Shown here: positions 42,801 through 45,800 of the stretch, in pieces
Position numbering within the stretch: position 1 is the stretch's first letter
How the letters are laid out: the number at the start of each line of letters is the position of its first letter
Program-made: the position numbers and the translations under genes
Source: Amoebidium appalachense
Lineage: Eukaryota; Protista; Ichthyosporea
Direction of reading: 5' to 3'
DNA length: 64,000 nt
Assembly (NCBI GenBank): GCA_963693365.1
Contig: CAVNZM010000012.1
Coordinates: forward strand, 7,692,001-7,756,000
The notes under the pieces: model-generated
Told to the model about the DNA's origin: nothing
Database searches by the model: none
What the model saw: the letters and a program-made list of their open reading frames with translations, nothing else

Positions 42801-45800
42801 TGAGATGTTAGTAATTTGCGGCCATCCAGAAGTTGTTGTGCAAACTTTTCGGGTCACGACATGTTCTGTGTCGTGTATGTCGAAATGGAATGTTTTTTTT
42901 TGTTGTTTTTTTTTTTTTTTTTTTTTGGGGGGGGGGGGGGGGGGGGGGGGGGGGGGGGGGGGGGGGGGGGGGTATGTGGGTGTGTGCATGGGTGTGTGCG
43001 TGAATTTGTGAACCATGTGTGTGTGTGTGCGGACGTGTGTGTGCGCATGTGTGTGTGTGCATACTTGTGGCATGTGTGTGCATGCATGCGGGTGTGCGCG
43101 TGCCCACGTACGCGTGCTGGTGTGTAAGCGTGTGTTTGCCTGCATGAAAGCATGCATGTGTGTGTGTGTATGTGTATGTATTGGCGTTTGTGTGGTGTGT
43201 GTGTGCGTGTGTGTGCGGGTGTGTGTGTCTTTAGGGATGGCTGTACATGTGACATGCCAATGCGTGAGCACTTAGGAAAATGGTTGTGTGATTCAATATA
43301 GGTGTACGTGCGTGTCTGGGGGATAGGGGGGGGGAAAGGAGAGAGAGAAGGGGGGGGGGTTTATATGCGGAACACGGTACGAAGTACGCATACACGATGA
43401 GAAGCATGGTGCAGGACACATGCAAAGGCAAACATTCAAGTATGCAACATCAGCCATGCGCACAGTATGCGTCATAAGCAGAGCCCATCCTCAGGGAGCG
43501 CCCAAGTCATCAATTGCGTCTGAGTTTCGAGCCCTTAGCCCGCGTAAATACGACTCTCCAACTCAGACAGCAGCATCAACTGAACTTGGGAGGGTCAAGC
43601 CGTCTTGATTAAAGGCGAGCAGGTTTGCTTATGCAAGCAAGGTGAGCAAAATGGTGAAGATGTGTGTGCAAATTAAAGCAGTGCAGCGAAAAATGCGTAT
43701 GTTTAGAGAGAAGGGGGGGGGGGGGGGGGGGGGGGGGGGAGGGGGGGGGAGGGAGGGAGGAGGGCATCTGTTTGTGTTTAGGCATGTGTATGTACACCTG
43801 CCTGTGGCCATATGTATGTGATTAGTAGGGGGGGAGGGGGGAGCGGGGGAGAGGGGTAGAGCTCCAAAATTCATACTAAGAAAGCGTACTGTCGGCAAAC
43901 CATTCCCTTCGCTGAGGTGATTAGACATGGTACGTTCTTCGGTGTGTATGTGCTGAAGTGTGTGTATGTGGTTATGAGTGCATGTATGTATTTGACAGCG
44001 CGGGGGGGGGGGGGGGGGGGGGGGGTTTGAATGCGTCAAAAAGTACGAAGTACACAAGAACAAACGGATAACACGATGCAGAATGCAAGCCATACATAAA
44101 GAGTATGCATAATAAGCAGAGCCCATCCTCAGGGGGGGCCCACGTCATCCACAGTACCCGAGTTTCGACCTATTCCCCTCGTTAACGAAACCCAACTCAG
44201 ATACTGTTTCACTTGAACATGAGTAGGTCACCCGTCTTGATGGGGGGGAGGGGGGGGGAGGGGGGGGGAGGGGGGGATGTATGTGTTAGAGGGTTGGAAA
44301 TATGGAGGAGACAACGGGGGGAGGGGGGAGGGGGGGAGGGGGACACAAGTTTGTGTGTGTGTGTGTGTGTGTGTGTGTGTGTATGTATGTATATATATAT
44401 ACACGCACACACGTACAGGTGATCATCTGTGCGTACAAGGGGTAAGGGGGGGAGGGGGAGGGGGGGGTGTACGTGTGCGAGTGATTATAGCCGCCGCCAT
44501 ATGTACGTAGGGAAAAGGGGCAAGCAAAGTAATCTGCTTTTTGCCCCGACCATGAAAGTAATAACCCAAGATCCGGGGGATGCCCCCAAGAGGGGGAGGA
44601 GGGGAGAGCCGGGGGGGGGGGGGGGGGGGGGGGGGTTACCCGTAGTTATGGTACGTTCTTCGTTGCTCCTCGAAAGCAAAGTCATTCATGCCTGCTGACT
44701 CGACAAACCCTGCAACATAGGAGCAAGAATGAGAAAGGAGATGTGTTGGTAGACGAGAGAAGCCGGTGAGTGTGTGTTTGGTATGTGTGTGTGTGTGTGT
44801 GTGTGTGTGTGGGTGGGTGGGTGGGTGGGTGGGTGGGGGGGGGGGGGGGGGGGGGGGGGGGAGGCAAAGGGAGAAGGAGAGAGACAAAGGAGGGATAAGG
44901 GAGAGACAAAGGGAAGGGGCCAAAACGGGGGGGGGGGGGGGGGGGGGGGAGGGGGGGGAGAGAGAGAGAGAGAGAGAGGAGGAGGGGGAAAAGAGAGGGT
45001 ACGGGAGGGAGGGACGAGAGGAGGGGGGCTGGGGGGAGGGGGTGGGATGGAGAGGAAGGGAAGAAAATTGATGGGGGAAAAGGGAAGTGAGAGGAAGGCG
45101 GACACAGAGAGGGAGGGAGAAAGGGAAGGAGGTGTGGGGGGGGGAGGGGGGCAGACGGAGGGATCGGGAGAGAATAAAAGGGAAAGAGAGGGGGAAGGAG
45201 GGAGGAAAAAAGAAGCAGATAGGTAGATACAGGGAGAGGGGGGGGGGAGAAAGAGAGAGAGAGAGCACCCGGGAGACAGAGATAGAGAGGATGTGTGTCT
45301 GTATGTGTGTGTGTGTGTGTGTGTGTGCGCGCGCGCATGCGCACTCGTGCGCCTGCACATGTGTGCATGTGTGCATGTGTGTGTGTGTGTGTGTGTGCGC
45401 GCGCGCATGCGTGTGTGTGTGTGTGTGCACGCGCGCACACACGCGCCCGTGTGTGTGTGTCCCACAAGCCAAGAACCCAAACTCACCGCTGATTATGTTC
45501 CTCTCTGCCCTTTCCTGTTGTGTCTTAAACGGGTTTTCTGGACCCACGGGGGCCGTGTATAACTCTTCATATTTTGGGTTGTAGGCGAGACTCCGCTGAT
45601 GAGGATCGATAGGGTTGACTGAAAGAATCGTTTCCTGCAAGGGATGAAAAGGAAAAAATGTGAGGCGTGTGAATTGGAATGTGGTGGGGAAACAACTTGC
45701 ATGTGCGAGAGATGGGTGAGTTTAGGAAAGTGTGGTGTGTGGGGCGTGTGACATGTTAAGAAAGGAGATGAGAGCCATGTGGCTTGGTTCTGTGTCTGTG

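Follow-up and report, generated by a model that had tools for sequence, protein, structure and literature searches.

Hammerhead ribozymes in the order cut-site block, GAAA block, CUGANGA block (type SGC) have been published and validated experimentally (Eckert 2023, PMC10085705; HRIMA-1 and variants). The same paper states that in no known hammerhead are more than 1-2 nt inserted beside CUGANGA, and we found no precedent in the literature examined for activity with a helix inserted there. Some hammerheads of Penelope-like elements are known to depend on dimerization or to be assisted by a protein. Among these elements, some Naiad 3' ends were flagged HHR_core or HHR_half_core, the accessible text giving no structure for them (Craig 2021, PMC8557442), and Chlamys elements target (C)n and (CA)n (PMC8557442). 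The accessible parts of PMC3088659, PMC13725137, PMC10162972 and bioRxiv 2026.09.16.752053 concern other hammerhead variants only. We found no description of split wiring or of non-circular hammerheads in Naiads, in a literature that mostly excludes subscription papers and also the supplements of PMC10085705.

Here we analyzed repeats in a window of 64,000 nucleotides (the whole stretch of DNA examined). All core letters of the hammerhead are present in these repeats, in S-G-C order, with the core likely opened between A9 and G10.1. We consider it fairly probable that the predicted self-cleavage after GUU takes place and that the motif is the ribozyme of Penelope-like (Naiad-type) retroelements, which are likely non-autonomous.

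Hammerhead core letters in minus-strand repeats

Read on the minus strand, the hammerhead core of the repeats runs from the cut site (GUU) through GAAA to CUGANGA (Table 1), and the 5' strand of stem II lies upstream of all other core parts, not joined to CUGANGA. The blocks run S, G, C and do not follow the circular C-G-S order of types I, II and III. An earlier sequence-only reading of this DNA had rightly placed the motif outside these three types, but the order is that of published type SGC. The core letters CUGANGA, GAAA and UH are intact in four window copies and restored in the family B majority. In the window alignment A15.1-U16.1 is U-A in 7/7 rows and G10.1-C11.1 is G-C in 6/6. All strands quoted by that reading were found at their minus-strand places, and its predicted cuts at 44194/44193, 56517/56516, 49145/49144 and 43560/43559 coincide with H17, as does 42511/42510 by reading. 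The defects that it had listed, a stem II mismatch in the 43360 copy and decayed cores in the D and 55750 copies, were seen as well.

Table 1. Repeat copies and their parts in the window; cuts and helices are predicted from the sequence
Feature	Position	Strand	Remarks
Family C element (focal), 5'-truncated	44026..44241	-	(C)n at end
Focal copy, stem II 5' strand	44224..44229	-	Upstream of remaining core; G10.1 = 44229
Focal copy, block S	44191..44207	-	Stem III 5' strand, U16.1 44195, H17 44194, stem I strand GGG
Focal copy, block G	44151..44172	-	Stem II 3' strand, GAAA 44166-44163, stem III 3' strand; 13 bp
Focal copy, stem I strand CCC, CUGAGGA, U, stem IV 3' strand GGG	44122..44135	-	CUGAGGA 44132-44126
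Family A element (copy A56)	56317..56626	-	Most intact motif (56430-56590); predicted cut 56517/56516
Copy A56, stem IV 5' strand	56579..56590	-	8 bp distal + 3 bp proximal; minimum-energy fold (unconstrained) and pair counts
Copy A56, hairpin V	56555..56577	-	9 bp, directly 5' of G10.1 (56553); fold and pair counts
Family A partial tandem	48958..49470	-	Predicted cut 49145/49144
Family A copy	43362..43702	-	One stem II mismatch
Family B copy, 5'-truncated, decayed	42312..42528	-	U at C3; one G absent before GAAA
B-related copy, decayed	55748..55907	-	Stem II (6 bp) kept, core lost
Family D copy	10058..10294	-	GAAA decayed, interrupted by (C)n tract; TRAPPC10 intron
Family C 3' fragment	22544..22686	-	Truncated right before GAAA; TRAPPC10 intron
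Family B 3' fragment	52082..52250	-	
B-like 3' fragment	56201..56261	-	CUGAAGA; directly after (C)n tail of copy A56
Family B 3' fragment	9344..9485	-	Begins at CUGAUGA; TRAPPC10 intron
Family A 3' fragment	2517..2657	-	TRAPPC10 intron

The focal family C copy sits in an intron of a WD40 gene (44640 to 42770), on the same strand as the gene, and its cut, as predicted from the sequence, falls within block S. Truncation starts this copy at 44241, without the 5' strand of stem IV and without half of hairpin V. The segment 44100-44245, previously proposed as a ribozyme construct, is without the stem IV/hairpin V clamp.

The motif is real. A descriptor comprising the core and stems I, II (with the upstream partner) and III gave three split matches (56485, 49113 and 44166) and one contiguous match (43528) in the window, while 300 dinucleotide shuffles of its 47,194 unmasked bases gave one split and three contiguous matches. 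The descriptor had no match in 266 listed public loci, of which 262 had been pre-selected for core words. Scans of public collections with looser patterns returned 58, at least 120, 84 and 4 loci; the descriptor accepted none of these, and none reached an E value below 0.016 when compared with a profile built from the window copies. A strict family pattern had no match in metagenomes and prokaryote genomes. Standard searches miss the motif, as had been anticipated: Rfam gave a partial Hammerhead_1 match on the focal copy (E 1.3, 14.2 bits, cut-off 34), likewise beginning at 44229, no hammerhead match on the intact copy A56, and no ribozyme among the 150 listed of 312 matches over the whole window, those being driven by microsatellites. 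Separately, a laxer version of the descriptor returned one weak match, at locus L226.

Predicted fold and proposed docking

The minimum-energy fold of copy A56 gives stem IV, hairpin V and the long stem III hairpin unprompted, and the 5' strand of stem IV finds its partner at 56430-56443, right after A9. These two helices had been overlooked in the sequence-only reading; in the modelled fold they likely bridge the gap between A9 and G10.1. In folding z-score the copy stands out only modestly and does not surpass the opposite strand (-2.27 vs -2.57). The linkers in the window copies (a U after A9, 1-2 nt before G10.1) are looser than in the Naiad examples with zero linkers, and alternative pairings compete for the leader.

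We propose that stem IV and hairpin V would stack end to end and bring A9 and G10.1 side by side, replacing the absent covalent link. The tip loop of the long hairpin, which holds the cut site and GAAA, would dock on the junction at the hairpin base through the pseudoknot stems I and II. The docking site would be a multi-way junction closed by stem IV and hairpin V, and not the UGAUG internal loop suggested earlier; that site was rejected because the UGAUG letters belong partly to the outer helix and partly to a 2-nt bulge. A K-turn or C/D-box reading of UGAUGA gave only chance-level matches. Palindromic linkers, absent from family B and from the Naiad records, are not favored as dimer signals.

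Docking between two copies, in a tandem transcript or a dimer, appears somewhat preferable to docking within one copy, because a helix of 13-26 bp with small one-sided bulges would be hard to fold back. A dimer had been considered possible in the sequence-only reading too. The same split ribozyme might instead work as a single copy, the long hairpin bending at its bulges so that the tip docks on its own base. This is the alternative that survives best, although we regard it as rather doubtful. In family A the 26-bp helix contains 5-7 bulged letters, and family C has a bulge of 8 nt; published ribozymes of types SGC and CSG, for which the authors point out a comparable steric puzzle, nevertheless cleaved while being transcribed. 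However, the bulges are one-sided. In two Naiad records, judged by eye, the helix measures only ~13 or ~15 bp, its bulges 1-2 nt and the linkers 0-2 nt; at ~2.8 A per pair in A-form geometry (an estimate, not a computation), such helices would lack the length and flexibility to make a U-turn. If two copies dock, the cut would process a tandem precursor RNA for the reverse transcriptase of an autonomous element, and lone intronic copies would stay mostly silent.

Element identity, catalysis and stem pairing

The repeats are likely non-autonomous Penelope-like elements. They are non-coding and present in very high copy number; among the window copies the 5' truncation varies while the 3' end is fixed, and the sharp 3' ends of the listed copies run into (C)n, as for insertion into a microsatellite. 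One partial tandem (pseudo-LTR; 49470-48958) consists of a short 3' fragment (~49470-49397) followed by a full 437-nt unit. Both of its parts share a private 15-nt deletion, and the same junction occurs among loose contig ends in two of four public runs (X10, X16). This anatomy agrees with the features of N-terminal-endonuclease Penelope-like elements in the accessible parts of Craig 2021. The previously suggested link to Penelope-like elements is thus supported. It is indirect, since none of the 248 frames scanned (of 249 in the window with at least 50 aa) encodes a reverse transcriptase or GIY-YIG domain; a missing coding frame is expected for a non-autonomous unit. The copies are dispersed, single or in partial tandem, and carry another ribozyme type, which sets them apart from non-LTR retrozymes with their tandem arrays and type I hammerheads.

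The fold could be real but non-catalytic, a scaffold derived from a hammerhead and retained as a signal to which the element's reverse transcriptase binds or at which it primes. Intact sense-orientation copies do persist inside introns, and upstream of the predicted cut genomic copies continue for another 110-245 nt, so that uncleaved or re-ligated RNA was copied. Moreover, in the Anolis Penelope-like element the hammerhead cleaved only with the protein, and insertion in vitro did not require this cleavage. We nevertheless consider such a scaffold unlikely: C3, U4, G5, A6, G8, A9, G12, A13, A14, A15.1-U16.1, a non-G at 17 and G10.1-C11.1 are all kept, and N7, H17 and the stems vary across families and phyla while the catalytic positions stay. 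In addition, sister Naiads in the accessible records carry contiguous CSG hammerheads, a type shown to cleave.

Pairing was counted in a window alignment of ten related, partly truncated rows, and shuffle counts are therefore not probabilities. Stem II formed with the upstream partner is paired in 93.3% of 30 cells, with a double change in three of five pairs; this pairing was reached in 3/500 shuffles, and slid registers pair in 17-63%. For the whole model, 88.4% of 215 cells are paired, with double changes in 7/41 pairs (1/500 shuffles). Stem III shows one double change. Stem I can form 3-4 bp and is paired in 85% of cells with no counted double change, its sole A-U/G-C swap being visible only by hand. 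The sequence-only reading had suggested more double changes in stem II than these three, because it took the copy at 55.8 kb, a decayed B relative, for a separate family. An outer 7-bp helix that connects stems I and II at their far ends is 88% paired with two double changes, some of them from a decayed row.

Public contigs bear on families A and B. At a threshold of 3%, they give 20 variant rows for family A, none of them within CUGA, GA, GAAA, GUU or stem II; two rows fall on unpaired letters adjoining stems I and II. The stem II 5' strand of family B is absent from the window and known from loose ends of public contigs. There, a prediction for this family was borne out, with GAGUC before GAAA and GACUC upstream (eight contigs in each of two runs, agreement ~0.7). 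Both defects of the 42-kb family B copy are restored in the genome-wide majority, C3 in ~98-99% of depth in three of four public runs. Run X9 yielded no family B sequence, which does not show that the family is absent there.

An ordinary contiguous type SGC hammerhead would take CUGANGA, a bulged U and GGGCU as its stem II and leave the upstream strand as an inhibitory switch. Penelope hammerheads commonly have a single additional letter between A9 and 10.1, and a spider Naiad record has exactly such a bulged U in contiguous CSG form; the 43.5-kb family A copy, alone among the copies, could form a contiguous 7-bp stem II in this way. Yet the contiguous pairing holds in only 72.5% of 40 cells, was reached in 130/500 shuffles, leaves position 3 unpaired in five of eight rows and improves when slid by +1. 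GGGC after CUGANGA is constant while the strand before GAAA varies, and in the split Naiad records it is an upstream strand (stem IV), not the strand before GAAA, that pairs with the letters after CUGANGA. We thus judge a contiguous stem II to be quite improbable, which agrees with the sequence-only reading in favoring the upstream strand. That short words came together by chance in a self-complementary repeat, as suggested by the shortness of the core words and by folding z-scores that are modest on both strands, is already largely refuted by the shuffle and locus controls, the compensatory changes, the family B prediction and the Naiad recurrence, and is exceedingly improbable.

Comparison with described systems

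Type I Penelope-like hammerheads and non-LTR retrozymes (PMC4209133, bioRxiv 2026.07.22.740005, accessible parts) resemble the window repeats in placing a hammerhead inside a short Penelope-tied repeat unit and in likely needing a second copy or a protein. Those hammerheads, however, are circular permutations that dimerize through stem III, whereas the window copies have a long, stable stem III and a proposed tip-to-base docking through stems I and II.

The Naiad and Chlamys elements of PMC8557442 share with the window repeats, in the accessible parts, 5' truncation, partial tandems, microsatellite targets and a motif near the 3' end, and the (C)n target resembles that of Chlamys. In contrast, the window units are at most 437 nt long and non-coding, with no reverse transcriptase in view, and their host is likely an ichthyosporean, a lineage missing from the accessible tables of Craig 2021. 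Read by eye and not computed, ten published Naiad consensus records in the supplement have this split order too, including stems IV and V. They amount to ~7 independent sequences (ctenophore, cnidarians, crustacean, octopus) with unrelated stem sequences; stem I, 4-7 bp and unrelated in sequence in most Naiad records, has 2 bp in the ctenophore record. Six other Naiad records are of contiguous type CSG by the same reading, and motif searches of the accessible Chlamys consensus files revealed no split motif. Split wiring would explain why Naiads were reported without canonical hammerheads. More tentatively, as a possibility that we hold below an even chance, this wiring, outside the six published orders and with its opened core clamped by a two-helix junction, may be the ancestral ribozyme among Naiad-type elements in hosts ranging from unicellular animal relatives to molluscs, assembling only from two copies and so acting as a tandem sensor that cuts precursor RNA and spares lone intronic copies.

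Type SGC (PMC10085705, accessible parts) shares with the window repeats the core letters, the S-G-C order, the pseudoknot stems I and II, a short link between these stems and a helix joining their far ends. Its RNAs were found in metatranscriptomes and metagenomes rather than in the retroelements of a known genome. That source defines block C as uninterrupted and lists six orders; in the window block C is opened at A9/G10.1, and unlike in type SGC, stem IV, a hairpin and the 5' and 3' ends are placed there. Such an opening would offer ribozyme switches a new attachment place for a sensor helix or a second strand. With respect to the published account, the S-G-C order itself is thus known, and only the opened block C is new.

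Repeat elements and their host genes

The window comes from a eukaryote; its genes (TRAPPC10, a WD40 gene, a TPR gene and a TrhO-like rhodanese) all lie on the minus strand and have small GT-AG exons. Window exons matched P0121, a transcriptome-derived TRAPPC10 protein, at up to 100% identity; its best non-self relative was CFRG6690T1 (790 bits; fungi at most 350 bits), a prefix that we take to denote Creolimax. This single gene points to an ichthyosporean as the probable host. From its exon peptides, the WD40 gene that contains the focal copy presumably resembles the splicing factor Prp17/CDC40. 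Best matches to the rhodanese part of the TrhO-like gene were bacterial (55-63%), and a fusion or old transfer is possible for this gene. (C)n and (CA)n are abundant in the introns.

The sequence-only reading had proposed hammerhead core and helix strands in minus-strand intronic repeats (families A to D); all quoted strands were found in the window, and the positions given for the predicted cuts proved correct on checking. A descriptor of the core and of stems I, II and III gave three split matches (stem II 5' strand upstream of all else) and one contiguous match (stem II strand right after CUGANGA) in the window, one split and three contiguous matches in 300 shuffles of 47,194 unmasked bases, and no match among 266 public loci. 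A profile built from the repeat copies matched 17 window places at E 1 or better. All 17 are on the minus strand, which is the sense strand for the host genes; the bias of long C runs toward it was only about 2:1 (134 vs 62). Rfam recognised no hammerhead in the intact family A copy and returned a partial Hammerhead_1 match to the focal copy (E 1.3), starting exactly at the proposed G10.1.

The repeat copies vary at the 5' end, and their common 3' end is sharp and continues into (C)n. One partial tandem has a junction that recurs in loose ends from two of four public runs. Copies of different families are stacked head to tail, each inserted in another copy's (C)n tail, an arrangement that tails serving as targets would produce. 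The difference between the stem III modules of families A and C, also seen in contig 15 of run X10 and in loose ends, suggests module swapping. The 248 of 249 window frames scanned yielded neither a reverse transcriptase nor an endonuclease.

Positions of the repeat copies and other features in the window
Feature	Position	Strand	Remarks
Tandem repeat, TRAPPC10 intron	7136-8333		unit about 56 nt, partly broken by G runs
Gene containing focal copy	41554-45721	-	WD40 match
Families head to tail	42312-44330; 55950-56630
Focal copy (family C)	44026-44241	-
Families A and C compared	56421-56599; 44102-44241		leader and CUGAGGA block in common; stem III modules differ
Partial tandem	49470-48958		3' fragment, then full 437-nt unit; private 15-nt deletion common to both
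Intact copy (family A)	56317-56626	-	predicted cut 56517/56516
TrhO-like rhodanese gene (UPF0176)	59572-62170	-	weak mTERF-like stretch after rhodanese part

Stem II pairing and the scaffold

Pairing was counted in 10 aligned rows of window copies; since these are related to one another, and truncated in several cases, the shuffle counts are not probabilities. The strand before GAAA paired with the upstream strand in 93.3% of 30 cells, with two-sided changes at three of five pairs, a result matched by 3 of 500 shuffles. The contiguous form, in which the same strand pairs with the letters after CUGANGA, fits one copy (43.5 kb) better than the split form does, but overall it paired in 72.5% of 40 cells, was matched by 130 of 500 shuffles and was outdone by a slid register. 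Family B lacks the upstream strand in the window, and public contigs served as a test of its predicted partner. Their majority restores C3 at about 98-99% of depth in three of four runs (the fourth had no matching contigs) and reads GAGUC before GAAA; loose ends past the truncation, from 8 contigs in each of two runs (agreement about 0.7), read GACUC upstream. These letters, although unlinked consensus letters, are the predicted stem II partners. With about 4,450 contigs in each of two runs, family A showed 20 variant rows of at least 3%, none of them in the core or stem II, a weak result given how young the family is.

In its lowest-energy fold, computed without constraints, the intact copy (56.4-56.6 kb) already shows the nested scaffold of the split form. 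Stem IV (8 + 3 bp) pairs the leader with the strand immediately 3' of A9, hairpin V (9 bp) directly precedes G10.1, and the cut site and GAAA sit in the tip loop of a bulged 26-bp hairpin. In this model the pseudoknots are limited to stems I and II. Folding z-scores are modest for both strands. Across the alignment the whole model paired in 88.4% of 215 cells with double changes at 7 of 41 pairs (1 of 500 shuffles), none of them in stem I, proximal stem IV or hairpin V. Stems IV and V may stack, and the nick between them would then set A9 beside G10.1. The focal copy, which starts at 44241, has lost the stem IV 5' strand and half of hairpin V and is therefore likely inactive.

Recurrence in Naiad consensus sequences

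Naiad and Chlamys Penelope-like elements are reported, in the accessible text of PMC8557442, to lack canonical hammerheads, some having core or half-core words; the traits listed there are matched by the window repeats. CUGANGA words were looked up in its consensus files and their flanking sequences read by eye rather than by computation; this covered 37 of 62 places for ctgatga (the other 25 being table rows), 22 of 25 for ctgagga, 22 of 23 for ctgacga and 39 of 43 for ctgaaga. The search is blind to words split at line ends, and most places were coding and irrelevant; "range" marks a taxon inferred from file order, its name being absent from the passage.

Among the matches listed, the split order was seen by eye in at least ten Naiad 3' ends, about seven independent sequences (one ctenophore, three Acropora, one hydrozoan-range, two cubozoan-range, one crustacean-range and two Octopus records). 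The layout is stem IV 5' strand, hairpin V, stem II strand, outer helix, S (the cut-site block), G (the GAAA block), outer helix, stem I strand, CUGANGA and stem IV 3' strand. By eye, the stem sequences differ wholly from one record to the next, stem IV being GGGG/CCCC, CCA/UGG or AGAGG/CCUCU in Naiads and CCC/GGG in the window, and the linker at A9 or G10.1 is often zero. One coral consensus has mismatches in stems I and II, and stem I of the ctenophore record is 2 bp.

The contiguous type CSG, earlier reports of which were limited to two metagenomic sequences, was seen in at least six Naiad 3' ends among these matches (five nematode or nematode-range, one spider), and an SGC-like form in one record. 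Five arthropod-range records had core words in no assignable order by eye. Several arthropod Naiads (near parts 16-19) carry CCCC before CUGACGA or CUGAAGA and then a hairpin, possibly further variants. A weak CSG-like hammerhead, its stems bulged, may be present in a slime-mould-range record near part 51. No split motif was seen among the matches listed from the Chlamys files, and the Chara and Hydra motifs read by eye as canonical type I.

Proposed docking and relation to known hammerheads

We predict, with moderate confidence, that the repeats carry a cleaving split hammerhead in a Penelope-like unit. The tip loop would most likely dock on the base junction through stems I and II, building a standard hammerhead core, and the RNA would be cut after GUU. 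Docking between two copies appears somewhat the better candidate. Docking within one copy, the hairpin tip reaching its own base, is doubtful: bulges in the family A and C hairpins might act as a hinge, but stem III has to leave the core one way and yet, as a single helix, arrive at the distal ends of stems I and II on the opposite side. In two Naiad records the almost unbroken helix has only about 13 and 15 pairs and the linkers are 0-2 nt; by an estimate from A-form geometry, such short, stiff and tightly linked helices could not make the U-turn. Tip-to-base docking of two copies would remove the strain and fits the partial tandems, and a need for two copies would account for the persistence of intact lone copies within introns in sense orientation. 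We counted against the proposed mechanism that genomic copies extend well upstream of the predicted cut; the RNA that was reverse-transcribed would therefore have been uncut or re-ligated. Two-copy docking would parallel the dimer-dependent and protein-assisted Penelope hammerheads described in the available parts of PMC4209133 and PMC11167929.

Eckert et al. (2023; PMC10085705) described and validated type SGC, whose order is likewise cut site, GAAA, CUGANGA. The point at issue is therefore whether block C, made up of the stem I strand, CUGANGA and the stem II strand, is truly split here. No account of this wiring, or of non-circular Naiad hammerheads, turned up in a literature search that lay mostly outside subscription papers and excluded the PMC10085705 supplements. 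The accessible text of PMC10085705 derives six possible block orders and defines block C as uninterrupted, because known alignments carry at most one or two inserted letters. Closure by stem IV gives the cyclic order S-G-C and thus the non-circular class opened inside block C; as modelled, the window wiring is an order outside those six. Block C is uninterrupted in type SGC as defined there, whereas in the window repeats it is apparently opened inside.
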